A stretch of 64,000 bases of DNA from Acinetobacter phage vB_AbaSI_3. Positions within the stretch are counted from its first letter, which is position 1. Each line of letters starts with the position of its first letter. The DNA is taken from sequence record PQ382034.1; one strand, given 5' to 3'. The notes under the pieces are model-generated. The model was not told the DNA's origin and ran no database searches. It saw only the letters and a program-made list of their open reading frames with translations. Made by a program: the position numbers and the translations under genes. This document shows positions 7,301 to 57,775 of the stretch, one piece after another.

Positions 7301-8881
7301 ATGTCTCAATTCAAACAAAAAACTAAAGAACAATTAATGGAAACTTGGGGTGATTTGCTCACTGCTGAAGGTTTACCAAAAATTGATGAAAGCCGCCATG
7401 TAGTAATGGCTAAAATCTTCGAAAACCAAGAAGCGGATTTTGCTACTGGCACTGAATACCGTGATCCTGAAATTGTTAAAGCATTTAGTGGTTTCTTAAC
7501 CGAAGCAGAAATTGGCGGTGACCATGGTTATGATGCAACAAATATTGCAGCAGGTCAAACTTCTGGTGCTGTAACTCAAATCGGTCCTGCGATTATGGGT
7601 ATGGTACGCCGTGCAATTCCTAACTTGATCGCTTTTGATATTTGCGGTGTACAACCTTTAAATGGTCCTACGGGTCAAATCTTCTCGTTACGTTCAGTGT
7701 ATGGTAAAGATCCTCTAGCAGCAGGTGCTAAAGAAGCTTTCCACCCAATGCTATCTCCTGACACAATGCATTCAGGTCAAGGTGCTGCTGAAGCATTTGA
7801 AAATGTTAAAGCCGGTGACACATTAGCAATTGGTGATATTAAACGTCATGACTTTGCTGACACAGGACGTGTATATATCCAAGCAATTAAAGCAGTAACA
7901 GTTGATGCTGGTGCTACTGATGCAGAAAAACTTGATGTAGAAATCAAAAAATTAATGGCCTCAGGTTCAGTTGCTGAAATTGGCGTTGGTATGGCTACAT
8001 CAGTTGCAGAATTGCAAGAAGGTTTCAATGGTTCACAAAATAACCCTTGGAACGAAATGGGATTCCGTATTGACAAGCAATCAGTTGAAGTTAAATCTCG
8101 TCAATTGAAAGCACAATACTCAATTGAACTTGCGCAAGATTTGAAAGCTGTACATGGTATGGATGCTGATGCTGAATTAGCAGGTATTCTTGCAACAGAA
8201 ATTATGCTTGAAATCAACCGTGAAATTGTTGATTGGATCAACTTCTCAGCTCAAATCGGTAAAACTGGCTTTACTCAAACAAATGGCTCTAAAGCAGGTG
8301 TATTCGACTTCCAAGATCCGATCGATGTAAAAGGTGCACGTTGGGCTGGTGAAGCGTATAAAGCGCTTTTAATCCAAATCGATAAAGAAGCTTCAGAAAT
8401 TGCTCGTCAAACTGGACGTGGTATCGGTAACTTCATCATCGCATCTCGTAACGTAGTTATGGCACTTGCACAAGTTGATGAACGTGTCAGCCCTGCCGCT
8501 CAAGGTCTTGCTTCTGGCATGAACTATGACACTACTAAAGCAACATTTGCTGGTGTACTTGGTGGTCGTTACAAAGTGTATATCGATCAATATGCACGTG
8601 AAGATTATTTCACAGTTGGTTTCAAAGGTTCAAGCGAACTTGATGCTGGTATTTACTACAGCCCATACGTTCCATTGACTCCATTACGTGGTTCTGATCC
8701 TAAGAATTTCCAACCAGTGATGGGCTTCAAAACTCGTTATGCAGTTGGTATCAACCCATTCGCAGATACAGTTGCACAAGCTCCAGCTGGTAACAAGCGT
8801 ATTAGCAATGGTATGCCAACCATCGAAAATTCAGCTGGTAAAAACGGTTACTTCCGTAAAGTCTATGTTAAGGGAATCTAA
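7301..8881 (+). CDS. 23: Major capsid protein gp23
   Basis: 526 aa. Strong recalled similarity to T4 gp23, e.g. KSRQLKAQYSIELAQDLKAVHGMD. Paralogous to the downstream gp24. Confidence 0.95.
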   Translation: MSQFKQKTKEQLMETWGDLLTAEGLPKIDESRHVVMAKIFENQEADFATGTEYRDPEIVKAFSGFLTEAEIGGDHGYDATNIAAGQTSGAVTQIGPAIMGMVRRAIPNLIAFDICGVQPLNGPTGQIFSLRSVYGKDPLAAGAKEAFHPMLSPDTMHSGQGAAEAFENVKAGDTLAIGDIKRHDFADTGRVYIQAIKAVTVDAGATDAEKLDVEIKKLMASGSVAEIGVGMATSVAELQEGFNGSQNNPWNEMGFRIDKQSVEVKSRQLKAQYSIELAQDLKAVHGMDADAELAGILATEIMLEINREIVDWINFSAQIGKTGFTQTNGSKAGVFDFQDPIDVKGARWAGEAYKALLIQIDKEASEIARQTGRGIGNFIIASRNVVMALAQVDERVSPAAQGLASGMNYDTTKATFAGVLGGRYKVYIDQYAREDYFTVGFKGSSELDAGIYYSPYVPLTPLRGSDPKNFQPVMGFKTRYAVGINPFADTVAQAPAGNKRISNGMPTIENSAGKNGYFRKVYVKGI

Positions 8882-8906: not shown

Positions 8907-8936
8907 AAGGGACTCATTTGAGTCCCTTTTTTGTTT
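8907..8936. terminator. Bidirectional rho-independent terminator between gp23 and the inverted HEG-like ORF
   Basis: Hairpin agggactc-attt-gagtccct followed by TTTTTTG, with an A-run upstream. Confidence 0.7.
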
Positions 8937-10344
8937 TGTATAATATGTTACCACAGTCCCATATTCTCCGTAAACCGTTTGCATAGCAATTTTCAGATTC
9001 AGATAGTTCTTCATCAAATATTTCTAACTTGTCTTTAAGGACATGCTTCATGTAACCTGAACGATGTTTGAGTTCTCCATCAACAATATAAAAATATCCA
9101 GGCTTTGTTACTCCAACTTTCTCCATTCCCATTTGTTCATATACATTTCCGAAACTCCAGCGTCGATTTGCATATGAAATCAAATTCATTCCTTTAAGAA
9201 GTTTTGATGCACCGCCAACTACACAGGTATATTTTTTAGAACATAGTCTCAATAGTTCCATGTCATATCCTTTATTAAATCGTGGCTTACCAAACGTTGC
9301 AACTTGAACAAGTTCGCCGTTATAGAACAGACCTTTAGCTGATGATGCACCACATTTGCCTTGTAGATGGTTCTCTTCACAAAATTCATGTGCTACTGAA
9401 ACAGAGATATCTCTAATGACACATTTTCGAGCATAGATTGTTTTTGATTTGCCCAATTTGTGTGAAATGACTGATTTCCAAATTTCACGTTTTATTGGAT
9501 TTCGCCATTCATTTTCAAAAATGTGCAATAAGTGGATACCTTGCTTTTCGCATTCTTCGGTTTTTGAAATGTGAGAGTTTCTAATGTGTTTATCGTTATC
9601 AGAATCTCCTGAACTATGCCAGAAAATGCCATTGTACTCTATTGCGAGCTTATGCGAAGGAATATACAGATCTAATTCTCTTGGAGGTATTATGTCTCTT
9701 CTATTAATATCCACTGTAGCGCCTAGGCTTGTTATAAATTCATATAGTTCATCTTCTGCAATGGATCTACTTTTGGTACGAACACCATGATCAAGAGAAA
9801 TCCTATACATGAATGTATAATGGCACCCAATAATTTTAACCAATTCATCAAACCCATGTGTCTCGTACATTTTAGTGAATTGGGCTTTATCATATACCCA
9901 ATCTGGTATATGATCTCTGCTTGGTTTTCTCGCCTTTATGGATTTGATGCCTTCTTTGGTGGTCCCGACATCACCATAACGTTCTCTGCGAGTATCCCAA
10001 ACCTTTTGATGATAGTCATTTCGGCCTTTGAGAGCTGAAGAGATTTTCTTTGTCCTTGCCTCAACATCAGTGTTGCTTACTTTCTTTTGCTTGACTTCAG
10101 GATCGTTAGCCGAACATTTTCTACTACAATACAATGAACCAATAGGTGCTGGATTAGAGCATACTTTACATTTAGGCAGTTCTGTTAGACCTAGCATTGC
10201 TAGTTTCATAACCGTGCTATCATCAAGACTGGCGTCGTACGCTGAACGATCAAACTTATCTGGATTATTCTGCACTAATTTCCGCCAGTTTGGGTTTAGT
10301 TTGCCCTTTGCATTCTTAAAAAAATCTATGTCTATCATCATCAT
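8914..10344 (-). CDS. Free-standing homing-endonuclease-like protein with an N-terminal Cys4 zinc finger and a Vsr/DUF559-type PD-(D/E)XK nuclease motif (LAIEYNGIFWHS)
   Basis: 476 aa. It is inverted between gp23 and gp24, the T4 segD hotspot. CKVC...CSRKC zinc-finger residues at the N-terminus. IEYNG..WH matches the Vsr-like endonuclease signature. It shares a bidirectional terminator hairpin with gp23. Confidence 0.5.
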   Translation of the reverse strand: MMMIDIDFFKNAKGKLNPNWRKLVQNNPDKFDRSAYDASLDDSTVMKLAMLGLTELPKCKVCSNPAPIGSLYCSRKCSANDPEVKQKKVSNTDVEARTKKISSALKGRNDYHQKVWDTRRERYGDVGTTKEGIKSIKARKPSRDHIPDWVYDKAQFTKMYETHGFDELVKIIGCHYTFMYRISLDHGVRTKSRSIAEDELYEFITSLGATVDINRRDIIPPRELDLYIPSHKLAIEYNGIFWHSSGDSDNDKHIRNSHISKTEECEKQGIHLLHIFENEWRNPIKREIWKSVISHKLGKSKTIYARKCVIRDISVSVAHEFCEENHLQGKCGASSAKGLFYNGELVQVATFGKPRFNKGYDMELLRLCSKKYTCVVGGASKLLKGMNLISYANRRWSFGNVYEQMGMEKVGVTKPGYFYIVDGELKHRSGYMKHVLKDKLEIFDEELSESENCYANGLRRIWDCGNILYKTKKGLK

Positions 10345-10425: not shown

Positions 10426-11697
10426 ATGAATCAAAAACATATTGATAAACTTATGATTGAATCTGTTCAATCTGCTGATAGCTTAATTGACAAGCCAGCG
10501 TTATTAGGACTAACACGAGCTACAACAAATTTAGTCTATCATGACTTAGTTGCAACTCAATACACTGATAAGCCTATCGCTGCTCTATTTGGTGTAAAGT
10601 ACCTTAATCCAAATAAAGAATTAACATTCGTTACTGGTGCAACCTATGGCGGTGCTTACGGAGAAAAAGAACGAGCATCGATGGTAGAAGCAACTGTTGG
10701 CATGTCTCCATTAAAAGGCACCGAATTTAAGCACAATAATATTGTATATAAAGTACTAGTTGACGATCCATTTGCAGGCATTACTGAAACAGAATTAGAT
10801 GACATTATTGCAGAAGCAGTCATTCTATCGACAATTAGACTCGCATCTGAAGCAGCAGAAACATCAAAATTTGAAGCAGAAGATTCATCAATTTCTGATT
10901 CTCGGTTTGAGATCAATCGTTGGCAGGCTAATGTCAAGTCTCGTAAGTTAAAAACTGAATTGTCAGTTGAGCTTGCACAAGATTTAGAAGCCGCAGGTTT
11001 TGATACTGCCGAGTTGTTAGAAGATCTATTAGCTACACAAATGGCAGAAGAAATTAACAAAGACATCATGCAGTCGTTGATTACTGTTTCACGTAGATTC
11101 AAAATTGATGGTGCAGAAAATGCTATCCTAGATTTATCTGCAGTAGGAAGTTCAGTTGATCAAGCTCGTAATTTATACCGCTATGTATGTGAAATGAATG
11201 CGAATATTCAAAAAACTACTGCATATAGCGCTACATTTGTACTTGCTTCTGCTCGTGTTGCAGCTCTATTGTGTTCGTCTGGCTGGGTTAAAGCAAATAC
11301 AGATGAAACACCTGATGCATCGATGGGCGTCCTTAAAAATGGTCTTGCATTATATTCAGACAACAACAGCCCGGTGGATTACATTATTGTCGGCGTAAAA
11401 TCATCATTTGGCGAACAAGAAAATGTTGGGTCATTATTTTATGCTCCATATGTTGAAGGACGTCCCGAAGGCTCTGATCCAACTGACCATGTCGGTGCAT
11501 ACAAGGTCATTAATGATCCGAATAGTTTGCAACCAAAAATCATGTTACTTATTCGCTACGCATTGTCAGTGAACCCTTATACGGTCGGACTCACTGATGC
11601 ACAGGCAAAAGTTGTTGATTCTACAAATTTAGATAACTTCGCAGGTCAAAGTGATATGTCAATTATCCTTGGTGTTAAATTGCCAAAATTAAAGTAA
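10426..11697 (+). CDS. 24: Capsid vertex protein gp24 (gp23 paralogue)
   Basis: 423 aa. KSRKLKTELSVELAQDLEAAGFD parallels the gp23 motif. A TATAAATA late promoter lies upstream. Confidence 0.9.
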   Translation: MNQKHIDKLMIESVQSADSLIDKPALLGLTRATTNLVYHDLVATQYTDKPIAALFGVKYLNPNKELTFVTGATYGGAYGEKERASMVEATVGMSPLKGTEFKHNNIVYKVLVDDPFAGITETELDDIIAEAVILSTIRLASEAAETSKFEAEDSSISDSRFEINRWQANVKSRKLKTELSVELAQDLEAAGFDTAELLEDLLATQMAEEINKDIMQSLITVSRRFKIDGAENAILDLSAVGSSVDQARNLYRYVCEMNANIQKTTAYSATFVLASARVAALLCSSGWVKANTDETPDASMGVLKNGLALYSDNNSPVDYIIVGVKSSFGEQENVGSLFYAPYVEGRPEGSDPTDHVGAYKVINDPNSLQPKIMLLIRYALSVNPYTVGLTDAQAKVVDSTNLDNFAGQSDMSIILGVKLPKLK

Positions 11698-16621: not shown

Positions 16622-17020
16622 TCACTGATGTCTAGCGCCACTAAGCTGTAGCTTTAGTTGTTCAAGTGTATCCGGGTTATCTAAGATGCTAAACATAACA
16701 GTTACAATAATAGCATTATTATCATATTGTGCTTGCACTGACACGCCTAGTCTAACAATTCTTGGCTCATATGCACGAATAGCTGATGTTATGCTTTTTT
16801 CTACTGTACTAACTGTAAGTGGAGACATGTTTTCAAATAAAGCATCGCCAATTTCACAGCCGAATTCTGGGTCAAATGGACGAGAGCCTTTAGGTGTTGT
16901 AATAATTCCTAAAAGAGAATTTTTAACTGCACGTGCGCCAACAGATGCAGCTACATCCTTATTCCATGCACGTGCCATTTCAGGTGATATGTCTGTATAC
17001 ATATCATTAATATTTTGCAT
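16622..17020 (-). CDS. 25: Baseplate wedge protein gp25
   Basis: 132 aa, the same length as T4 gp25. Strong recalled match, e.g. IITTPKGSRPFDPEFGC and QLKLQL. Confidence 0.92.
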   Translation of the reverse strand: MQNINDMYTDISPEMARAWNKDVAASVGARAVKNSLLGIITTPKGSRPFDPEFGCEIGDALFENMSPLTVSTVEKSITSAIRAYEPRIVRLGVSVQAQYDNNAIIVTVMFSILDNPDTLEQLKLQLSGARHQ

Positions 17021-17664
17021 TATAGCACCTCAACAAATTCTTTAAAGCCTTTTATAATATGTACATGAGACTTGCCACACTTAGGACATTTGATTGGCAC
17101 AACCAGCACAGGTTGTGGAGCTAATAAAAATGATTTGATATAATTAATATCATCTTCAGTTATTGCATTGTATAGATCTTCTAATTCAAGCTCATTTAAA
17201 TCTTCTACAAAAATCCGTTCATCACCTACATAAATCGATTCTATTGATTTTGCAATCATTAATGGCACATTGTCGTCATCCCAGAGTTCAGGCCATCTAA
17301 ATGCAACTTTAAACTTTTTGAATGGATACAATGTCTCGAGATTACTATTGCCGTAATCTATCTGTGCTTTAGAGACATCTAACTCTACATCATGTACATG
17401 CCCGCATTCACATGTATATTCTTGAGTGACCTTTCCAAAATGTTCGCTATTTGCGATTAAATTGATTAGAACTAATTCGGCATCATGTTTTGGTAAATTC
17501 ATGAGCCCGGTACACTTCTCGATGATTGACGAGTATACCTTCTTCATATTATCGGAGATTGTCGAATCTTTAGAAATTATAAGGCTTGTATAATCTCTCA
17601 ATGAATATGATTTACATTCTACAACGCTAGAGCCTAACTTAACATTGAATTTCTTTTCAAACAT
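17020..17664 (-). CDS. 26: Baseplate hub subunit gp26
   Basis: 214 aa. Synteny after gp25. Cys pairs. Confidence 0.7.
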   Translation of the reverse strand: MFEKKFNVKLGSSVVECKSYSLRDYTSLIISKDSTISDNMKKVYSSIIEKCTGLMNLPKHDAELVLINLIANSEHFGKVTQEYTCECGHVHDVELDVSKAQIDYGNSNLETLYPFKKFKVAFRWPELWDDDNVPLMIAKSIESIYVGDERIFVEDLNELELEDLYNAITEDDINYIKSFLLAPQPVLVVPIKCPKCGKSHVHIIKGFKEFVEVL

Positions 17665-17702
17665 AATTTAGTAGCCTACTAAAAGTTTTATTAAGAGTAT
17701 TT

Positions 17703-17710
17703 ATAAATAT
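17703..17710 (+). promoter_or_regulatory. Late promoter TATAAATA upstream of gp51
   Basis: Exact octamer. Confidence 0.6.
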
Positions 17711-17731: not shown

Positions 17732-18487
17732 ATGGCTAATATTATAAGATGTAGACTTCCTGACGGTATTCATCGCTTTAAGCCGTTTACAGTAGCTGAC
17801 TATAGAGATTTCTTACTTATCAGAAATGATATGATTTCTAAAACTGATTCAGAGCAAGAAGAACTTGTCAGTGAATTGGCAGCAGATTATTTTAATGAAT
17901 ACCCTAAGTCATGGCAACAATATTTGTTCTTAAACGTTTTCACTGGATCTGTAGGTAAAACAAAGGTACCAATTGTGTTTCAATGTCCTACTTGTGGCAA
18001 ATCTCAAAAGCGTTTGTTTAATATTGCTCAGGATGGTTTAGTTGCTCCAAAAATACAACTAAATGATGAAACAGAATTGTCGTTCAAATTTCCTGATGAG
18101 ATTTACACTGATTCTGCACGATTGGTCCTAGACAACATTGAAAGTGTATCACACAAAGGGGCTGAATACCGTTGGCAAGATTTAGATAAAGAAACACAAG
18201 ACAATATAATCGAGATGCTGGACTTTGAGAAGTTTGAGATGCTTGTTAAAAAATTAAAGCCTATTCATTTTGAAATGAATATAAGCTGTTGTGAAAAGCA
18301 TACAATTGTATTTGAAGACTTGGCATCTATTTTCAAATTGTTAATTAATCCAGACGAAGTATTTCCATTTTATGAAATCAACAACATTCTAATTAAAAAT
18401 AACTATGATTGGAATTCTATCATGGCGATGCTTCCAGCTGAACGCAGTATAGCACTGTCAATGATAGAAAGGGATAGCAAAAGATGA
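17732..18487 (+). CDS. 51: Baseplate hub assembly catalyst gp51
   Basis: 251 aa (T4 gp51 is 249 aa). Synteny. A late promoter lies upstream. Confidence 0.7.
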   Translation: MANIIRCRLPDGIHRFKPFTVADYRDFLLIRNDMISKTDSEQEELVSELAADYFNEYPKSWQQYLFLNVFTGSVGKTKVPIVFQCPTCGKSQKRLFNIAQDGLVAPKIQLNDETELSFKFPDEIYTDSARLVLDNIESVSHKGAEYRWQDLDKETQDNIIEMLDFEKFEMLVKKLKPIHFEMNISCCEKHTIVFEDLASIFKLLINPDEVFPFYEINNILIKNNYDWNSIMAMLPAERSIALSMIERDSKR

Positions 18488-20067
18488 CACAACAAAGACC
18501 AGGGTATCCTAACGTCAGTATCAAGCTATATGAAGATTATGACGCATGGAAAGAAAATAGATTTATTGAGCTCGCAGCAACATTTACTACACTTACTCTT
18601 CGTGATAGCTTATATGGTACAAATGAAGGCATTCTTCAATTTTATGATTCAAAAAATTTACACGCTAAATTAAATGGCGAACAAATAATTCAAATATCGC
18701 TTTCAAATGCAAATTCTAAAGATGTAATTACACGCATCTATGGATGTAATGACACATCAGTTTCAGTTGATGAAAAGGGCGATAATATTCTTGCATTCAA
18801 CCTCCGTCCTTTACACACAGTAGAAAATGTTAAATTCAGTCGTGCATTCTTTGCTAATGCAACAGAATCTATTGAAACTATGATAAAGTCAATCTACAAC
18901 AATAAAGCACAGCTTGCGCCTAAAGTTAAAGGATTGAATGTTTATGTTCCTCGTGTAGCATGGGTAAACACAATCGAAGATTATTTTGAATATGTTAGAG
19001 AAGTTGGCTTATCTGTTGAATCAGAAACACATGCATTCGTTTGGGAAGATTTTACCGGCATCAATATTTCTGATTACAAATTCATGATTGATCAGAAACC
19101 AAGAGTAATGGTAGTTGGTGATCCCGCACAAATTGGTTCATATATCTCCAATATGAAAGAGCAATTGGCATATGACTTTACTTGGCTCGCTAAAACAAAT
19201 CGAAATGTACGAAACCCACTAGAGAATGTGACAGTGTATAGCCATTCATTCAATGACAAAGAAATTCAAAGAATTTCGATAGGTGAAGGCACTAACTCTG
19301 TTGTCGTATCTAGATCTGGCGGCTATTCTGAAATGACATATCGCAATGGATATGAAGAAGCATTTAGATTGCTTACTATGGCTCAATATGATGGTTATGC
19401 CACATGTAAAGTTATTGGTGACTTTACGCTGACACCATTGCAGAAAGTGATTTTTGGTGACAAAAAGGGACAATTCAAAACTGAATTTTATATTGATGAA
19501 GTAATTCATGTCATCACAAACAATTCATCTGAAACTCATTTATACTTGTTCACAAATGGTAAAGATCTTGTGCCAGTAAACATCGAAAAAATTAAAAATG
19601 AGATTGAGACCATTACTCCTCCATCAGATACAGTTCAACCTGAAGCATCAGCTGACAGGAAAGGTGCACAATGGGATCTCGATAAGTTATCAGAAGTAGT
19701 TTTGAAGAATGCACAAGGAAGAAAATCTACAGGTGAATGTGCATTGTATGTTCGTAAAGCGTTACAAGCAGCGCAATTACAGAGTTTCTTCGCCGGTGGG
19801 CTAGGTAATGCAAATGAAATGCCATCACGGCTAACACAGATGGGATGGATCGCAGTAGGTCAAAACGTTAAAAATGTCAAGAAAGGCGACATTGCAGTGT
19901 TCCAACGAACTAATACACGCCTTGGACAGAAATATGGCCATATTTGTATTTTTACCGGATCACAGTGGGTGTCAGACTTTATCCAATCTAGTGTACAACC
20001 TAACAGAAATGATAATTTAACCTATACCGTATATAGAGCCCGTTATGGGTATAGTGCAGGAGCATAA
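18484..20067 (+). CDS. 27: Baseplate hub subunit gp27 with an additional C-terminal papain-like Cys/His (CHAP/NlpC-P60-type) domain
   Basis: 527 aa. The first roughly 385 aa align with T4 gp27 as I recall it (MxxQRPGYPNxSxKL...EFYxDEVIH). The last roughly 140 aa are extra and carry TGECALYVRKAL ... GHICIFTG. Confidence 0.85.
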   Translation: MTQQRPGYPNVSIKLYEDYDAWKENRFIELAATFTTLTLRDSLYGTNEGILQFYDSKNLHAKLNGEQIIQISLSNANSKDVITRIYGCNDTSVSVDEKGDNILAFNLRPLHTVENVKFSRAFFANATESIETMIKSIYNNKAQLAPKVKGLNVYVPRVAWVNTIEDYFEYVREVGLSVESETHAFVWEDFTGINISDYKFMIDQKPRVMVVGDPAQIGSYISNMKEQLAYDFTWLAKTNRNVRNPLENVTVYSHSFNDKEIQRISIGEGTNSVVVSRSGGYSEMTYRNGYEEAFRLLTMAQYDGYATCKVIGDFTLTPLQKVIFGDKKGQFKTEFYIDEVIHVITNNSSETHLYLFTNGKDLVPVNIEKIKNEIETITPPSDTVQPEASADRKGAQWDLDKLSEVVLKNAQGRKSTGECALYVRKALQAAQLQSFFAGGLGNANEMPSRLTQMGWIAVGQNVKNVKKGDIAVFQRTNTRLGQKYGHICIFTGSQWVSDFIQSSVQPNRNDNLTYTVYRARYGYSAGA

Positions 20068-20068
20068 A

Positions 20069-20617
20069 ATGGGAAATGTAAAATTAGAATTAGAGCCAAA
20101 ATCTAAAGTGATTGAAGTTAATGGCAAAACTATCAAAGTCCCAAAACTTGGACTTAAACATAGACTATTGATGAAAGAAGGTATTAGCCATGAAGATGCA
20201 ATGAAGGTGCTCCTAAACTATATTCAACCTAATTTATCATTAGCTGAAAGAGATTTATTGACACTTCACTTATTGGAGTATAATGGTAGAATTCGTTCGC
20301 AAGTTAAAGCCGGTGAATTCTTGTATGACATAAACAACGCATACATATGTCAACAATTAAAATTTAATTATGAAGATTATGAATTTAAATTCAGATCTCC
20401 AACAATGGAACTTATGAAAGGCCCATTAGACATTCTTTTGAAAGAGTGTTGTGTAAGTGTCAAGAAATCAGGTGAAAAAATTCCTGTACCCGATTTCATG
20501 GATATGCCAGCATTTGTCTACAGATGGGCAGATATGATAACAAATACTGTTGCCATTGATGGTCCATTTGGGCAAATCAGAGGCTTGTATAAAGTAGTGG
20601 AGTTATTCAGTGAATAA
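20069..20617 (+). CDS. 28: Baseplate hub distal subunit gp28
   Basis: 182 aa from the ATG that follows RBS GGAGCA. Synteny. Confidence 0.65.
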   Translation: MGNVKLELEPKSKVIEVNGKTIKVPKLGLKHRLLMKEGISHEDAMKVLLNYIQPNLSLAERDLLTLHLLEYNGRIRSQVKAGEFLYDINNAYICQQLKFNYEDYEFKFRSPTMELMKGPLDILLKECCVSVKKSGEKIPVPDFMDMPAFVYRWADMITNTVAIDGPFGQIRGLYKVVELFSE

Positions 20618-47622: not shown

Positions 47623-50600
47623 ATGTCTGAAGTAAAAACAAGTTTCCGTGCGTCATACGGTCTAGACGCGGCTGGTGAGAAAGTAATTAATGTTGCAAAG
47701 GCTGACAAAACTGTCATGACCGATGGTGTCAACGTCGAATATCTCATTCAGGAAAATACGACCCAACAATATGACCCAGAGCGTGCCTATGAAAAAGGAT
47801 TCATTATAGAATTTAATGATCGTCTCTGGATTGCAGAACAAGACATCCCTAAACCTGCAGGTAGCTTCAATGAAGGGTACTGGCGCCCAGTACGTACAGA
47901 CCCAAAGTGGAAGCCTATTGATTCTGGTAAATATCAGTTACATGTTGGTGATTATATCTCTGTAGATACGCGTGCAGGCTTAGATGTAGAACTAACATTA
48001 CCTACTAATCCTATACCACAGGAAGGCGATACAATTGTTGTAAAGGATGTCGGCGGGCAACCAGGTTACACATCGGTGTTAGTCTTTGCACCTGTGCAGT
48101 CAATTATTGACAAAGGCGTAAGTATTCCACAAAAACGAATGACTATTCCATTTTCTGAATGGACATTTGTATACACAAAGAGTCAATGGTCATTATATGA
48201 TGGCGTTGAAGCCCCAGTAGCAAGAACTGTTACTACATCTGGTCCTACTCGAATCCAATCAGGTGATACGATTCTTAGAAACTATGATAAAGTAGCTCCT
48301 ATTGTATTGACTTTTCCTAAATTTGCCAACAATGGCGACATAATTCATTTTGTAGGCATGAATGAAAATACAGTGCCTTATTATCACTTAGAGCTTAATG
48401 CATTTGATAGCAATACAAGTATTGGTTCTCCGGGTAAGTCATCGCAAATTTTCTATCGTTCGCTAAGTGGGTATTTCATTTTTAATAGCTTGACTTCAAC
48501 TTGGTATTTGTACGATTCAGATATGACAGATCGTCTTAGAACTGTTAGTACTGATACTGAGATTTTCCCGAATGAAACTGTAGCAGTAGTAGGCAAAGAT
48601 AATACTACTACACAGACTATTAAATTGACATTGCCACAAAACGTGCAACCTGGTGACCAGGTAACAATTTCATTAAATTATATTAGAAAGGGACAAACTG
48701 TTAACATCGTGCCTAAAGGCACCGATATGATTTTAACAAATCAAAATCTAACTCAGTTCCCTAAACGCTCAAGCTATCCACCTGCTGCCAATTGGGTTAA
48801 CACTAATTTATTGTCATATAACGGTTCAAACGACTACCCGCCGGTATTAACATTTGCATACATTGATATGGGACCTATCAAACAATGGCTGATGGTAAGT
48901 TGTTTGCCTGTATTAGAGCGTGTTGATCCGACAACAGATGATACTCGTACTCGTTTAGGTGTTATTGCTTTAGCAAATCAATCTCAAGCAAACTTAGACA
49001 AAGAAAATATTTCGGTTACTGCAAATCCATTAGCACGAGAAGTTGCTATCACGCCGGAAACTCTTGCCAATAGGACCGCTTTGGACAACCGTCGTGGAAT
49101 CGCAAGAATCGCAAAACAAGAAGAAGTAAACCTAACTACAGATAATGCTGCATTAGCATATGATACTATCGTTACGCCTAAGACTCTTAATGGCAAAAAG
49201 GCTACAGAAACGATGGTAGGTTTGGCAGAAATTGCTACTCAAGCCGAAACCAATAGCAACACTGACGATTCTCGTATCATCACTTCTAAGAAATTAGATG
49301 GACGACGCGCAACACCTGCTTTAGCCGGAGTCGCTAAACTTGTTGCTACAGGTGGCACTGCTCCTGTTAAAGGAGGTACAAATACTCGTGATACTGCCGG
49401 AACTGGCATTTATAATCATGCAGACTTCGAGAACATTGTTACACCTAAAACATTGAGAGAATATTATTCTACAGAAATGGCATTAGGTACAGTGTATCTT
49501 GCAAATTCTGCTGAAGTTATTTCTGGTGCAGCTACATTAGCTAAATATCCATTAGCAGTAACTCCTGAAACTTTGCACACTAAGACCGCTACCGATGGGC
49601 GTATAGGCTTTTCACAAGTGGCTAAACAAGCCGAAGTTGATGCTGGAACAGATTATTTTAAATTTGTTACACCAAAAACTTTAGCAGGAAGAATTGCACG
49701 AGAAGACTTAGCCGGTATCGCAAAATTAGCAACCCAAGGCGAATTTGACGCTGGTACAGCTGGATTAATTTCAGGCCCAGATAAAATTAAGACATTTTTC
49801 TCTCGCGCTGAAAGAACTATTGTCAATAATGCTGAAGGTTTAACACAATCTGGTAGCATTTGGACCGGGTTAAAGTTGAATATTCTTGCACCATCAGAGA
49901 CCCAACGTGGTACAGCAAGATATGCTACGCAAGATGAAACAGATAAAGGTGTTGATGCCACAACAATTGTGACTCCTGCAAAATTACATGCCAAGAAAGC
50001 CACTACAGTTGCAGAAGGTATTGTCAGAATGGCAAATACTGCTGAGACGGTAGCTGGTACTGCATATAATTTAGCAGTATCGCCTGGCAATCTAAAATAT
50101 GTTGTACAATCTGAATTGACATGGGAGGCCACACCTGAACGTAGAGGTTTCATTAAACTTTCTACAGGTTCAACAACATGGCAAGGCAACACAGTTGATG
50201 GTAATGCAAATATCAACATTGAAACTCAATTCAACAAAAATGGTATGGCTGTTTCGCCGTATGAGTTCAACCGTGTTTTGAGGAACTATTTACCTATTGG
50301 TGCTAAAGCAGTTGATTCTGATAAATTAGATGGATTGGATTCATCACAGTTTATTCGTAGAGACATTGGCCAAATTGTTAATGGCGCATTAACACTGACA
50401 CAGCCTACAACTGCAACATACATTACTGCTTCTAATGATGTATCAGTCCAAGCTCTTTTATCTGCTAATCAGATTAACGTACGAAAATCTGGAACTCCTG
50501 ATGATGCGTCTGTTACAAAGAACGCTGGTATAAATTTGTATGGCGCTCCACAAATTGCTACAGGGCGTCCGACCTACGGTATTCATTTTTCTAGTACTGG

Positions 50601-51570
50601 TGGCACAGACCCTAATGGGACACATGGCTATGGCGCCGGGACTTGGGGTACATATTTTGCTCAAAGCATCGCTAGCGCAGCTGAACAACGCGCATGGTAC
50701 TTCCAGCAGATTTTTAACGGTGCAGTTAAAAACGTTGGCTCTATCACAGCACAAGGCGATGTTTGGTTTGATGGTGTTATCAATACAGACAAAACCTTTA
50801 GAATCAAAAACAACATCATTGCTGAAAAAGATGCTGGTGGTAACTTGATTATTGGTACTCCTGATCAACAAATGTATTTCCGTTCTAAAGATGCAGGAGA
50901 TGTTAGAGTTCAAGAAGCTGTTGCAGGAACAGTATACCGTGTCGTTACGACTAAAAACTTTGTTGACGAAGGTAATAAAACTTATGTGAGAAAGACCGGC
51001 GATTCAATGACCGGACGCCTCAATATTTCTCAACCTATAACTGCTACTATCAACCAATCTGCTGCGACACCAAATGCAGTTCCAAATGCCAGCAATTTTG
51101 GTACATGGACTATTGATATAACTGATCCTGCAATATATAATACTATGCGCCCGTATGTTGTTGGAGTAAATGCAATCAATAAAGAGACAGGTGAAGTCTT
51201 GCCATGGTTTGATAAGTACGAGGAGTTTAATGGGCCTGGTACATTGTCACAATTTGGATCTTCTGCTAGTAATGGTTCTGGTACATACCAAATCTGGGCA
51301 CCACGTCCGCCAGCAGATAAAGCGAATTTACCTGGGCATATTGCTGGCACAATGTGGTCAAGACAGTGGAATCCTATTACAAATAAATGGGATGGTTGGG
51401 GTAGAATGTTTACAAACAATCATCCGCCATTGCCTACAGACATTGGCGCTATGAGCAATAATGGTTCAGTTTTTGATTCTATGAGAATTAGAGATTGGAT
51501 TCAAGTAGGTAATTTGAGAATTTATGCAGACCCATCTACAAAAACCGTTCGTTTTGATTGGATTGAATAA
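47623..51570 (+). CDS. 34: Long tail fibre proximal subunit gp34
   Basis: 1315 aa. It contains about 8 tandem repeats of roughly 40 aa (..VTPKTL/VTPETL..) typical of phage fibre repeats. Synteny. Confidence 0.85.
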   Translation: MSEVKTSFRASYGLDAAGEKVINVAKADKTVMTDGVNVEYLIQENTTQQYDPERAYEKGFIIEFNDRLWIAEQDIPKPAGSFNEGYWRPVRTDPKWKPIDSGKYQLHVGDYISVDTRAGLDVELTLPTNPIPQEGDTIVVKDVGGQPGYTSVLVFAPVQSIIDKGVSIPQKRMTIPFSEWTFVYTKSQWSLYDGVEAPVARTVTTSGPTRIQSGDTILRNYDKVAPIVLTFPKFANNGDIIHFVGMNENTVPYYHLELNAFDSNTSIGSPGKSSQIFYRSLSGYFIFNSLTSTWYLYDSDMTDRLRTVSTDTEIFPNETVAVVGKDNTTTQTIKLTLPQNVQPGDQVTISLNYIRKGQTVNIVPKGTDMILTNQNLTQFPKRSSYPPAANWVNTNLLSYNGSNDYPPVLTFAYIDMGPIKQWLMVSCLPVLERVDPTTDDTRTRLGVIALANQSQANLDKENISVTANPLAREVAITPETLANRTALDNRRGIARIAKQEEVNLTTDNAALAYDTIVTPKTLNGKKATETMVGLAEIATQAETNSNTDDSRIITSKKLDGRRATPALAGVAKLVATGGTAPVKGGTNTRDTAGTGIYNHADFENIVTPKTLREYYSTEMALGTVYLANSAEVISGAATLAKYPLAVTPETLHTKTATDGRIGFSQVAKQAEVDAGTDYFKFVTPKTLAGRIAREDLAGIAKLATQGEFDAGTAGLISGPDKIKTFFSRAERTIVNNAEGLTQSGSIWTGLKLNILAPSETQRGTARYATQDETDKGVDATTIVTPAKLHAKKATTVAEGIVRMANTAETVAGTAYNLAVSPGNLKYVVQSELTWEATPERRGFIKLSTGSTTWQGNTVDGNANINIETQFNKNGMAVSPYEFNRVLRNYLPIGAKAVDSDKLDGLDSSQFIRRDIGQIVNGALTLTQPTTATYITASNDVSVQALLSANQINVRKSGTPDDASVTKNAGINLYGAPQIATGRPTYGIHFSSTGGTDPNGTHGYGAGTWGTYFAQSIASAAEQRAWYFQQIFNGAVKNVGSITAQGDVWFDGVINTDKTFRIKNNIIAEKDAGGNLIIGTPDQQMYFRSKDAGDVRVQEAVAGTVYRVVTTKNFVDEGNKTYVRKTGDSMTGRLNISQPITATINQSAATPNAVPNASNFGTWTIDITDPAIYNTMRPYVVGVNAINKETGEVLPWFDKYEEFNGPGTLSQFGSSASNGSGTYQIWAPRPPADKANLPGHIAGTMWSRQWNPITNKWDGWGRMFTNNHPPLPTDIGAMSNNGSVFDSMRIRDWIQVGNLRIYADPSTKTVRFDWIE

Positions 51571-53491: not shown

Positions 53492-56400
53492 ATGGCATTA
53501 GACTCAAATATCAGTAGAATTAAATTTATGAGATCTAAGACAGCGGGTGCAGTGCCAAGCCCTACTCTCTTGGACGAAGGCGAATTGGCCATTAACTTGG
53601 TTGATCGTACAATATTTTCAAAAAATGGCGCAAACACGGTTGAACTCGGTTTTGGTAAAGGCGGAACAGTAGCTGGACCAATTAATGTTACAGGTGGTAA
53701 TGCTGTAACTGCTGCGCAATTCAATGGTGCCTTAAATGGCAATGCTGCAACTGCATCAAGACTTCTTACAGGAAGAAAAATTAATGATGTAGTTTTTGAT
53801 GGTACTAAAGATATTACCATTGAAGATTCTACTAAATTATACAAATCTGATGTGCTAACTTCATCTGGCAGTTCTCGTGTTATTCGTGATGCAGCAACAA
53901 TTCGTGCAGCGGCTATTGCTAAAGGAGCAGTAGTAATTCATTTACCGAAAAGGGCAAATTCAGTTAACACAATGATGAAATTGTGCATTCAAGGATTTGA
54001 TTATGTTGCTGGGCGAGCTACTCAAAGTAACTGGTCTGTAGATATTAGTGGATATAATTACACCGGTGCAGCTTGGCACTCATACCAGGCAATTTCAACA
54101 GGCGGTCCAGCGCCATTCGATACTGTTCGTTGGGGGCAAGCCGACAATCACCAGGTTATTATTTTAGGCGAAGCCGGTGCATCACCTTCTTCATGGTCAT
54201 ATTACAATATTAGCATTGAGAAAATTTATTTAACTAATAGTACAGAAGCATATGATGACCCTAATGATCCAATTTATATGGCAATTGAAGCCGATATATC
54301 TAATTATGTGATAAATGCCACTTTGCCACTTGAAGGCGTTGCAATGGCTAAACGTTTAGAAATAGGCCGTACATTTACTTTCACTGGTGACGCTAGAGGT
54401 TCATTGTCATTTGACGGTACTGCAAACGTTTCTACTGCATTAACAATTAATTCTGCAACTACAGGCCAAGCCGGTTTAGTTAAATTAAACAATACATTAA
54501 CTTCTACATCTGTCACAGAAGCGTTAACTGCTAATATGGGTAAAATATTAGGTGATGCAGTTAATACAAAAGTTGATAAGATCAATCCAACTTCTTCTGG
54601 CACATTAACACATACCGGCGAAGCTAGTACATCTGGTCTATTAAATGCGGCAGGTGGTATTAGTACATCTAGCTTAGCAATTTCTACTGGTACTATTTCA
54701 AAAACTGATGGTACTGGTTACTTATCATTTTTACAAGGTAGTGCAGCTTTAGGTATCAATATTGGTGATTTACTTGTTTCTAATTCATATTCTGATAGAT
54801 CAAAAATCCCAGTAAATGGTGCATATCTTAAAGGTGGGTTGGACTCAGATAACGTTATCCGTGGCGCAACTGGTACTGCTTATAGTTCATTAACTGCAAT
54901 TGGTGTAGGTACATCAATTCCATTTAAATTAAAAGACACCAATATTGGTACATCTTACGGATTTGTTCCTGGCTTTGGCATGAACGTCCAAACATCTGGA
55001 GGTTATCGTCAAGTAGTTTCAATTGGTGCATATCGCCCTGGTAGTAACTGGACAGATTCTGGAGTTTATATTGCTACGGGTGCAACCAATGATGGTTATT
55101 CATCTGAAGCATTTTTGTTAAAATCTGGTCGTACTATTTCTAATACAGCTGGGCCAATTAACTTAATTGGTAATGCTGATACTGCATCTAATATTGATGC
55201 ATCATCTGGTTCACTAGTTGGTGATTCGTCTGCGGGTTGGCGTAAACTTGGTCGAGCAACTGTCCCGCAAAACGGACGTGCAATGATGCTTCAAATTTTT
55301 GGCGGTACTGGTTTTAATGCTGGTGTGCCAACGCAAGCAATGTGTACTGAAATTGTATTAAAAGGCGGTAACAGTGGACCATCCAGCATTAATATGGTTG
55401 TACATGTACCAGACTCAAGCAATATATTGGCCAACTTGGGTAAAGGCGTTGCAAATGCTTGTTTTGTTCCAGTAACTGGTGATGATTATGATATCTATAT
55501 CAATTGTGTTGGGTATTTACGAGCAGGTATTGTCGCAATAAAAGGCGCATTAACTGATTGGGCCCTTAACTTTGATGTAGCTGGTGTTTCAACTAAACCT
55601 ACTGGCGCAGTTGACGCAGCAATTTATACCAAAGCATATACAACATCTAATGTAGCATCAGCAACCAAATTACAGAATCCAAGAACAATTAACGGTGTTA
55701 ATTTTGACGGTACAGCTAATATCAAAATTCAACAAGAATCTGTCGCAATTCCAGCTAATGCGAACTTGACTGATTATACTAATGAAGGTTTTTATGTATG
55801 CGAGGCTAATGCAACAGCAGTTACAATAAAAGGTACACCGTTCAATCCATCTGGAACTTCATCTTCTGCATTGGCATTCAGTTTACTTGTTGAAAAATCT
55901 GCTGGTGTTAAACAAACTTACACGTCATATGCATCAGGCGCTACACGTACATGGGTTCGAGGAATTTATCAAGGATCACCATCTGCATGGCGTGAAGTAG
56001 CTTTTTGTAATTCTCCAACATTTGTAGATACTGCTACGTTTAATGGTCCGATTGTTGCATCAAGCACGTTAAACGTAACTGGTACCGCAGGATTCAATAG
56101 CGTATCTGTGAATAATTTGTCAGCATCTACAACAATTAGTGCTGGAACTAGTCTTGGAATTGCTAACACAGTTGCAACTACCAAATATGGTCTAAGTCTT
56201 TATGGCGGGGCATCTGCAGGTAAACCAAGTTATGGGGTATTGTTTACTGGCACCTCAAATAGCGACACTGGTAAGCACGGTGATATTAACGGCCAATGGA
56301 GTGTTTACTTTACTTGTGCAACATCGGGTTCAGAAAAACGAGGTTGGGTATTCCAGCGTTCATCTGGTGGAACTGGTGTTCAAAACGTAGCATCTATTTC

Positions 56401-57775
56401 AACTGACGGTAACATGGTTATCGATGGTAATTTTGATACTGCTTCTGATAACACAATGATTCGTGTTGGTAACAATAACGATCTTGCTATGATTAAAAAA
56501 GCGGGCTCGGGTGCATTTATTGCAGTTGGGACTAATACTGCATTCAGAGTGTTAAAATCTCCAATTGCAACTGTTGACCCGACACAATCTTATGTTAATT
56601 TGATGACAGTAACAACATCAGGAGATTTAGATTTAGCTGGCAATAATATTCTTATTGGTTCAGGTACTAATAACAATACATATCAAACTATTCAGTTTGG
56701 TAATTATACTAAATCATCATCTGGCGGCGGATTCTCCGTTTTACAAACAGCTCCTGTGGGCGGTTCACAAGGTCGAGTTTTGCAATTAGCGAACTATACC
56801 CAAGCTGGTACTATTGATAGTGCATTACACGTAAATAATTCTGGAACTTATCAAACAATAGGAACAGCGACATTAAAATTAGCTACTATTAGTGATAATG
56901 TTGCTTCTGCAACTCGTTTGCAAACTGCAAGAACTTTCCAAATTACTGGTGGCATCACAACAGATGCAGTATCATTTGACGGACAACAAAACGTTACATT
57001 GACCGCATCTAATGTCGATGGTTCTAAAGTTACAGGCAAAGTTCCTGCAGCTGCACAAGCGGATAATGCAACAAATGCCGTGTTATCACAACGTACTACA
57101 AGTGTAGATGTTAATGGGCAACCAGGTGCAAGACTTGCTGCTATGTGGTCTGGTACTACTTGGAATAAAAATTTCACCCGTGATGCGGTCTATTCATCAG
57201 CATCTTCAATAACTATTGAGATAGGTGATAGCGGTGATCAAGCAACTGATGATAGAATGAATAACATTAAAGTTGGAAGTTTATTGCATCTTATGTTTGC
57301 GGTTTCTACGGGAGGTATTTGGTCTGGGCAGTTATCTACAGGAACAATTACCGCTGTATCGATAAATAGAAGCACCAAATCTATTATTTTAACAGTTAAT
57401 ATTCCACATAGTATAAGCCCAGGAAATAAAACATCTGCTCGTATTCTTGGTATAACTTATAACGCTATTGGATGTAAATATGTTGGATGTGTTACATTAT
57501 TTGCTAAAGGCGATATAGGCGATTCGGAATTCTCTCAACTGTTGCAATTAGATGCTCCGGTAAATAATGCAGTTATGACAACTAGTGTCTCCGGAGATGT
57601 TTCGAGATATCATAATTTATTTCCATATGGGGCCTTTCTTTCACATCGAAATGGGGTATCTATGTCAGCGACAATGGTTAATAATACTATGGCTAATTTT
57701 ATCTGTACAGATAATGATAATGACGTACCTGCATCAGTAGGTATGGCAAATATACAAATCTGGGATGTCGTATAA
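53492..57775 (+). CDS. 37: Long tail fibre distal subunit gp37 (receptor-binding), enlarged
   Basis: 1427 aa. The N-terminus FMRSKTAGAVPSPTLLDEGELAINLVDRTIF matches T4 gp37. No gp38 follows it. Confidence 0.85.
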   Translation: MALDSNISRIKFMRSKTAGAVPSPTLLDEGELAINLVDRTIFSKNGANTVELGFGKGGTVAGPINVTGGNAVTAAQFNGALNGNAATASRLLTGRKINDVVFDGTKDITIEDSTKLYKSDVLTSSGSSRVIRDAATIRAAAIAKGAVVIHLPKRANSVNTMMKLCIQGFDYVAGRATQSNWSVDISGYNYTGAAWHSYQAISTGGPAPFDTVRWGQADNHQVIILGEAGASPSSWSYYNISIEKIYLTNSTEAYDDPNDPIYMAIEADISNYVINATLPLEGVAMAKRLEIGRTFTFTGDARGSLSFDGTANVSTALTINSATTGQAGLVKLNNTLTSTSVTEALTANMGKILGDAVNTKVDKINPTSSGTLTHTGEASTSGLLNAAGGISTSSLAISTGTISKTDGTGYLSFLQGSAALGINIGDLLVSNSYSDRSKIPVNGAYLKGGLDSDNVIRGATGTAYSSLTAIGVGTSIPFKLKDTNIGTSYGFVPGFGMNVQTSGGYRQVVSIGAYRPGSNWTDSGVYIATGATNDGYSSEAFLLKSGRTISNTAGPINLIGNADTASNIDASSGSLVGDSSAGWRKLGRATVPQNGRAMMLQIFGGTGFNAGVPTQAMCTEIVLKGGNSGPSSINMVVHVPDSSNILANLGKGVANACFVPVTGDDYDIYINCVGYLRAGIVAIKGALTDWALNFDVAGVSTKPTGAVDAAIYTKAYTTSNVASATKLQNPRTINGVNFDGTANIKIQQESVAIPANANLTDYTNEGFYVCEANATAVTIKGTPFNPSGTSSSALAFSLLVEKSAGVKQTYTSYASGATRTWVRGIYQGSPSAWREVAFCNSPTFVDTATFNGPIVASSTLNVTGTAGFNSVSVNNLSASTTISAGTSLGIANTVATTKYGLSLYGGASAGKPSYGVLFTGTSNSDTGKHGDINGQWSVYFTCATSGSEKRGWVFQRSSGGTGVQNVASISTDGNMVIDGNFDTASDNTMIRVGNNNDLAMIKKAGSGAFIAVGTNTAFRVLKSPIATVDPTQSYVNLMTVTTSGDLDLAGNNILIGSGTNNNTYQTIQFGNYTKSSSGGGFSVLQTAPVGGSQGRVLQLANYTQAGTIDSALHVNNSGTYQTIGTATLKLATISDNVASATRLQTARTFQITGGITTDAVSFDGQQNVTLTASNVDGSKVTGKVPAAAQADNATNAVLSQRTTSVDVNGQPGARLAAMWSGTTWNKNFTRDAVYSSASSITIEIGDSGDQATDDRMNNIKVGSLLHLMFAVSTGGIWSGQLSTGTITAVSINRSTKSIILTVNIPHSISPGNKTSARILGITYNAIGCKYVGCVTLFAKGDIGDSEFSQLLQLDAPVNNAVMTTSVSGDVSRYHNLFPYGAFLSHRNGVSMSATMVNNTMANFICTDNDNDVPASVGMANIQIWDVV

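Follow-up and report, generated by a model that had tools for sequence, protein, structure and literature searches.

In the textbook picture of bacteriophage T4, gp5 is the only enzyme of the tail. The VgrG protein of type VI secretion systems (T6SS) is a fusion of gp27-like and gp5-like modules (PMC4969574, PMC8632748). Tae3 from Ralstonia pickettii (PDB 4HZ9 chain A) is a T6SS amidase effector with the catalytic dyad C23/H81 (PMC11796386), reported to use a Cys-His-Ser triad (PMC10318531); families Tae2 and Tae3 are reported to cleave the bond between meso-diaminopimelate and D-alanine (mDAP-D-Ala) of peptidoglycan (PMC3695027). Hub proteins extended by a wall hydrolase were reviewed under the Hub/Tal architecture, where lactococcal Tal2009/TP901-1 Tal carry an M23 peptidase (PMC6115969). 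Here, a stretch of 64,000 nucleotides from Acinetobacter phage vB_AbaSI_3 (sequence record PQ382034.1; hereafter the window) was analysed for its gene 27, which encodes a baseplate hub protein gp27 prolonged at the C-terminus by a domain of the Tae3 family. The preferred reading, held with a probability of about 0.7, is that a Tae3-family amidase sits on the gp27 hub and cuts peptidoglycan cross-links at entry, alongside the gp5 lysozyme. The identity of the domain is close to certain; that it is an active enzyme, which bond it cuts, that virions carry it and where, and that it acts in entry are what we infer.

Gene 27 and its parts are positioned as follows:
18484..20067, plus strand: gene 27, a single frame in the list of open reading frames (ORFs), for a baseplate hub gp27 of 527 amino acids (aa) with a predicted C-terminal amidase domain
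18493..19602, plus strand: gp27 core, residues 4-373, with Pfam Phage-tail_1 at 4-198 and Phage-tail_2 at 201-373
19609..19671, plus strand: linker, residues 376-396, TITPPSDTVQPEASADRKGAQ, marked by low identity, a high proportion of nonsynonymous differences (pN) and a low predicted local distance difference test score (pLDDT)
19672..20064, plus strand: predicted Tae3-like CHAP-type cysteine amidase domain, residues 397-527
19738..19740, plus strand: codon of Cys419, the predicted nucleophile, aligned with C23 of Tae3 and invariant in 98/98 family members and in 35/35 extended gp27s
19939..19941, plus strand: codon of His486, the predicted general base, aligned with H81 of Tae3 and invariant
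19972..19977, plus strand: codons of Ser497-Asp498, in a WVSDF motif that is invariant in all family members

The TAA stop occupies 20065-20067, and 19651 is the first base of codon 390. The product matched the baseplate hub family phrog_1135 (E 1.6e-181), and both Pfam domains were found in order (Phage-tail_1, E 5.7e-80; Phage-tail_2, E 1.8e-70), PF09097 and PF09096 scoring 268 and 237 bits for gathering cut-offs of 27 and 25. Residues 5-383 of the 391 of T4 gp27 (PDB 1K28_D) aligned with residues 4-381 at E 4.4e-153. Judged by these matches, the core is a true gp27. A sequence-only reading of this DNA had described the first ~385 residues as colinear with T4 gp27 and the ORF as running on past the T4 end; both statements hold, the additional part being a linker of ~20 residues and a domain of ~130 residues.

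When residues 390-527 were scanned alone, CHAP (PF05257) was matched with 28.6 bits for a cut-off of 26, next to a weaker Tae4 match; CHAP was unlisted when the whole of gp27 was scanned, and precomputed PF05257 matches were available for 12 of 34 extended gp27 homologues. PHROGs tied the domain to a family of Campylobacter phage 'endolysins' and, among proteins named 'baseplate hub subunit and tail lysozyme', to the C-terminus of some. The sole match among all PDB sequences was Tae3 (4HZ9 chain A; phmmer, E 3e-6), with Cys419 pairing with C23 and His486 with H81. Tae3 and the gp27 domain were placed in the same sequence family because a profile derived from the window domain scored Tae3 at E 7.5e-46 over residues 7-118 of 119. 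The CHAP-type assignment proposed by the sequence-only reading is supported and could be narrowed to the Tae3 family. The two motifs on which it relied, TGECALYVRKAL and GHICIFTG, were found at residues 416-427 and 485-492, but the spacing between Cys and His is 67 residues and not the ~75 initially estimated. Invariant positions in an alignment of 98 sequences were C419, H486, W495, S497, D498, R424, G468-D469 and R518, and C419, H486, S497 and D498 were all kept in the 35 extended gp27s. Ser497 would be the third member of a Cys-His-Ser triad.

A model of the domain, computed from the 98-sequence alignment, reached a pLDDT of 82 and a predicted template modelling score (pTM) of 0.79. Cys419 was the first residue of helix 38-49 and His486 the first residue of strand 105-109 (model numbering), so that the model displays Cys at a helix start and His at a strand start, as in papain-like enzymes. 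Foldseek comparison of the model with the PDB ranked Tae3 first (E 2.7e-8; target-normalised template modelling score 0.82), and superposition on Tae3 would bring Cys and His close together. By sequence and by structure alike, the extension genuinely belongs to the Tae3 family.

The window region was 99% nucleotide-identical to Acinetobacter baumannii T4-like Lazarusvirus myophages such as AB-Navy1, AM101, Konradin, DLP1 and others (megablast), and the same value was obtained for gene 27 against its counterparts in AB-Navy1, AM101 and others. An uninterrupted full-length gene 27 ORF was present in 51 phage records with 80-99% nucleotide identity (megablast), and the extension alone was detected by tblastn in ~69 Acinetobacter phage records with 60-100% identity, including ZZ1, Acj9, Acj61, Ac42 and 133. 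The search with the gp27 core uncovered two separate length groups. The long one was composed of 34 clusters of 518-534 aa (counted as protein clusters at 90% identity) with 52-96% core identity to the window; the short one, of 86 clusters of 268-406 aa, came from phages of enterobacteria, Aeromonas, Pseudomonas and Shewanella. Of the records in the phage collection, 1,377 contained the gp27 core, and 68 of these bear an Acinetobacter name; gp27 with the extension was found only in the Acinetobacter group (tblastn). The fusion appears to be universal in the Acinetobacter T4-like clade. A metagenomic contig representing a deeper-branching relative (L089, 52% core identity) displayed the same fusion and the same gene order. 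Two database labels deserve correction: the 167-kb contig CAVJPU010000002.1, binned as a 'bacterium' metagenome-assembled genome, holds the complete genome of a T4-like Acinetobacter phage, gp27 fusion included, and the NCBI name of one gp27 cluster (P0121), 'LysM domain protein [Acinetobacter baumannii]', is a misattribution.

Core and C-terminal domain retained more than 50% identity to the window in distant homologues and the linker 5-20%. By the Nei-Gojobori method, residues 376-396 change almost freely (pN up to 0.64), and the lowest pLDDT of the domain model fell in the same tract, which is probably a flexible tether. Against five divergent phages, residues 397-527 gave pN of 0.13-0.30 and a proportion of synonymous differences (pS) of ~0.7, which is saturated; pN and pS of the core had the same values, and on this measure purifying selection acts on the domain just as it does on the hub core. 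Across the 34 clusters, extension identity tracked core identity. The pattern is that of one old fusion, vertically inherited, with a constrained domain on a flexible tether.

Outside gp27, the family is large and diverse. An exhaustive profile search gathered 2,698 cluster representatives, of which 1,851 reached E ≤ 1e-10; a single-sequence word-indexed search had returned five proteins and an alignment-based one 343. The domain was almost always C-terminal, in proteins of 120-3,275 aa. Carriers included stand-alone proteins of ~125 aa, RHS-repeat toxins, an Hcp fusion (P0071) and proteins with LysM, PG_binding_1 or muramidase domains; they are polymorphic-toxin and wall-targeting contexts. 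Other phage carriers were a 1,159-aa protein of Campylobacter CP220-type phages and a protein named tape measure. The CP220 protein (L008:3742-7221), called 'endolysin' or 'membrane protein', has its Tae3-like domain internally, at about residues 750-856, and its gene lies directly upstream of a gp48-like gene, the place that the tape-measure gene 29 occupies in T4. It had no significant BLASTP similarity to gp29 of the window; only its position and a BFVD match to 'tape measure' suggest that it is a gp29 homologue.

Homologues of ~40% identity are common on the chromosomes of Acinetobacter, Moraxella, Psychrobacter and Bacteroidota. In a crude neighbour-joining tree, without bootstrap support, the phage domains were monophyletic and stood outside the Acinetobacter chromosomal clade. 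Capture of the domain from the host is not supported by this tree, since the phage domains were not nested in that clade. The Acinetobacter homologue is a stand-alone protein of 159-170 aa encoded at a conserved locus near acnA, with dusA on one side and a ThiF/ygdL-like gene on the other (L011:7893-8372 and L090:3719-4228). No T6SS genes were found within ±5 kb of it, and a divergent lipoprotein next to it, considered as an immunity partner, was rejected because it is NlpE-like and not Tai3-like and because of this lack of T6SS genes. The 82-kb record containing the second of these loci (CAKLQF020000020.1, 'Acinetobacter phage MD-2021a') is a mislabelled bacterial chromosome with dusA, LysR, ygdL, acnA and a dusA-adjacent integrase.

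In AM101, the sister phage 99% identical here, gp5 has 594 aa and comprises Gp5_OB, Phage_lysozyme and beta-helix domains. It shares 38% identity with T4 lysozyme, whose catalytic residues E11, D20 and T26 are matched by its E182, D191 and T197. As both the lysozyme domain and its catalytic residues are kept, the gp27 domain would be an additional hydrolase and not a replacement. It had been left open initially whether a peptidase on gp27 would supply a 'second or alternative' activity; second is what is predicted here. From these sequences the tail tip probably carries two different wall-cutting enzymes, compared with one in T4. A normal gp27 subunit would be joined through the flexible linker of ~20 residues to a Tae3-family amidase (Cys419/His486, probably with Ser497), and T4 stoichiometry would give three copies of the domain at the gp27-gp5 junction of the cell-puncturing device. 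Because VgrG fuses gp27-like and gp5-like modules, the C-terminus of gp27 should lie near the N-terminal domain of gp5; this would be the distal end of the gp27 cup, where the T4 lysozyme domains also sit. Sheath contraction would drive the hub through the outer membrane into the periplasm, where the tethered domains could reach the peptidoglycan. The amidase would cut peptide cross-links (mDAP-D-Ala, by homology to Tae3) and the gp5 lysozyme the glycan strands, and their combined action would clear a way through the sacculus for the tail tube. The mDAP-D-Ala specificity is presumed to carry over to this divergent phage clade.

Several points weigh against this reading. The gp5 evidence comes from AM101, gene 5 being outside the window. 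The AlphaFold model of the full 527 aa, from a single sequence, had a pLDDT of 32 and gives no usable placement of the domain relative to gp27 and gp5, and the baseplate may lack room for three extra domains of 15 kDa. The domain could also be cleaved off before or during assembly; lactococcal Tal is partly processed (PMC6115969). Neither virion proteomics nor a baseplate structure of an Acinetobacter T4-like phage was found in the literature searched, and literature searches aimed at the fusion found no paper naming or studying the gp27 domain. Compared with the typical Tae3 family, the phage clade displays a three-residue deletion, a two-residue insertion after the catalytic helix and no WPGxxYR motif near the C-terminus, and its bond specificity may therefore differ.

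Among other explanations, that of an artefact, in which a frameshift or assembly error joined gene 27 to a separate downstream gene, has only the unusual length of the protein in its favour; it is refuted by the same unbroken ORF in the ~69 independently sequenced phage genomes and the 34 metagenomic clusters, and gene 28 follows directly with a ribosome-binding site of its own. A domain that is catalytically silent in the virion, serving as a peptidoglycan-binding anchor or as purely structural decoration of the hub, would fit the loss in the phage clade of WPGxxYR, conserved in the rest of the family, and activity of the domain is itself a prediction. The invariance of Cys, His and Ser-Asp in all 35 extended gp27s, across 52-96% core identity, would be unexpected for a pseudo-enzyme, which makes such a silent domain improbable. 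Hardly better placed is a protease or assembly factor, processing for instance gp5, gp29 or gp27 itself during hub assembly.

Slightly less improbable, though still thought unlikely, is an enzyme that acts mainly at the end of infection or otherwise outside entry, as a lysis aid after holin has opened the membrane, in lysis from without, or cleaved off before virions are formed. Gene 27 is a late gene and encodes no signal peptide, so unassembled gp27 should build up in the cytoplasm until lysis, and no virion proteomics turned up in the literature searched. Against it, both the stable fusion to a structural hub subunit across the clade and the translational coupling to gene 28 point to a hub-tied function, and separate lysis genes are present, for example a Vs.1-like transglycosylase and rI/rIII. 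The preferred reading of an amidase acting at entry would admit a more specific version, considered unlikely: a T6SS-type effector domain would be hub cargo required specifically for getting through the peptidoglycan of Acinetobacter, for instance where walls in stationary phase or with a high degree of cross-linking do not yield to the gp5 lysozyme on its own. As a member of the Tae3 family, it could be inhibited by Tai3-like periplasmic immunity proteins of bacteria. If this were true, T6SS immunity genes of the Tai3 type would double as a barrier to phage entry.

The surroundings of gene 27 were those of a T4 hub gene cluster, with the order 26, 51, 27, 28, 29, 48, 54 kept (window ORFs compared with the AM101 annotation):
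16622-17020, minus strand: gp25, from ORF order and AM101 annotation
17020-17664, minus strand: gp26, from ORF order and AM101 annotation
17702..17709, plus strand: T4-type late promoter TATAAATA upstream of gene 51, from a pattern search
17732-18487, plus strand: gp51, from ORF order and AM101 annotation
20069..20617, plus strand: gene 28, hub distal subunit, gp28 starting at the equivalent ATG in the AM101 annotation

The late promoter at 17702-17709 probably drives genes 51-27-28-29-48-54. Pattern search counted 18 T4-type late promoter motifs in the window for 7.6 expected by chance, none of which was inside gene 27; separate expression of the domain from an internal late promoter was rejected for lack of such a motif. 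Between genes 26 and 51, at 17698-17709, two late promoter motifs overlap divergently, TATAAATA being present on both strands. The ATG of gene 28 (20069) lies one base past the TAA of gene 27, and its GGAG ribosome-binding site falls within the last codons of gene 27 (…SAGA); a longer ORF start at 20045 is probably unused. Coupling of the two genes may help explain the conserved …GYSAGA tail of gp27.

Elsewhere in the window, a 476-aa ORF on the minus strand (8914-10344) separates gene 23 (7301-8881, major capsid) from gene 24 (10426-11697); its AM101 equivalent is annotated as a homing endonuclease. Two very large plus-strand ORFs at 47623-51570 and 53492-57775, of 1,315 and 1,427 aa, are presumably long tail fibre genes. 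Outside the window, the AM101 fibritin gene wac (L002:31572-33446) has an annotated C-terminal deacetylase domain, a further case in this clade of an enzyme module attached to a T4 structural protein.

The fusion itself was noticed early: in the GenBank entries for phages 133, Ac42 and Acj9, dating from 2010, gene 27 is described as 'fused to (conserved) hypothetical Acinetobacter protein', leaving the domain unnamed, and some database entries already carry an automatic PF05257 tag. Hubs with a C-terminal hydrolase are already known elsewhere; what is new is that the phage is T4-like and has a Gram-negative host, that the domain is of the Tae3 family and that it coexists with a gp5 lysozyme. 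The fusion would alter the T4 textbook picture for the whole Acinetobacter T4-like clade. That clade includes therapeutic A. baumannii phages; AB-Navy1, to which the window is 99% identical, was among the phages of a therapy case (PMC9247103). A toxin domain of bacterial T6SS, RHS and Hcp carriers is found also on gp27, the phage homologue of the N-terminal module of VgrG, which offers a concrete case of a cargo logic common to phage tails and T6SS. The domain is also a small (~130 aa), sequence-defined candidate enzyme against the peptidoglycan of Acinetobacter, and a determinant of infection efficiency that can be put to the test.

Compared with Tae3 of R. pickettii (PDB 4HZ9/4HZB), the gp27 domain is a divergent branch, with its indels and without WPGxxYR. 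Tae3 is a T6SS effector that kills; here the carrier is a phage virion protein, and the domain presumably breaches the wall locally for DNA entry. No immunity gene adjoins gene 27, whose neighbours are genes 51 and 28, although no search with a Tai3 sequence was made. Its product is encoded in a phage structural operon, in contrast to other family members fused to Hcp or RHS. In functional terms the gp27 domain is no T6SS effector, since it lacks both a T6SS carrier and an adjacent immunity gene.

The T4 cell-puncturing device (gp27-gp5, PDB 1K28) is alike in its gp27 core, its gene order and, as seen in the sister phage, the OB, lysozyme and beta-helix domains of gp5. The T4 gp27 chain stops at residue 391 without any enzymatic domain, whereas here gp27 is predicted to carry a second wall hydrolase; T4 gp5 is a muramidase and the gp27 domain would be chemically different, a peptide-bond amidase. 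A gp27-like N-terminal module followed in the same polypeptide by a predicted wall-hydrolase domain is the architecture of Hub/Tal proteins. It is also encountered in the hub of Staphylococcus aureus phage phi812, with a CHAP/C51 lytic domain (PDB 9EUF/9EUM), and in the diffocin Hub-Hydrolase CD1368, a hub with a C-terminal hydrolase (PDB 8V3W). Tal, phi812 and diffocin hubs are directed at the thick walls of Gram-positive bacteria, and their domains share no more than a superfamily with that of gp27 or are unrelated (M23); the gp27 fusion belongs to a T4-like phage of a Gram-negative host and combines a Tae3-family domain with a gp5 lysozyme alongside.

The 'evolved' VgrG and Hcp proteins of T6SS follow the same design logic, an effector domain being added to a spike or tube protein, and family member P0071 is itself an Hcp-Tae3-like fusion. 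A VgrG-Tae3 fusion was not identified directly among the family members, some short ones bearing only a Joint Genome Institute (JGI) 'VgrG' label. In evolved VgrG the effector comes after the gp5-like needle, whereas here it comes after the gp27 module and gp5 is a separate protein.
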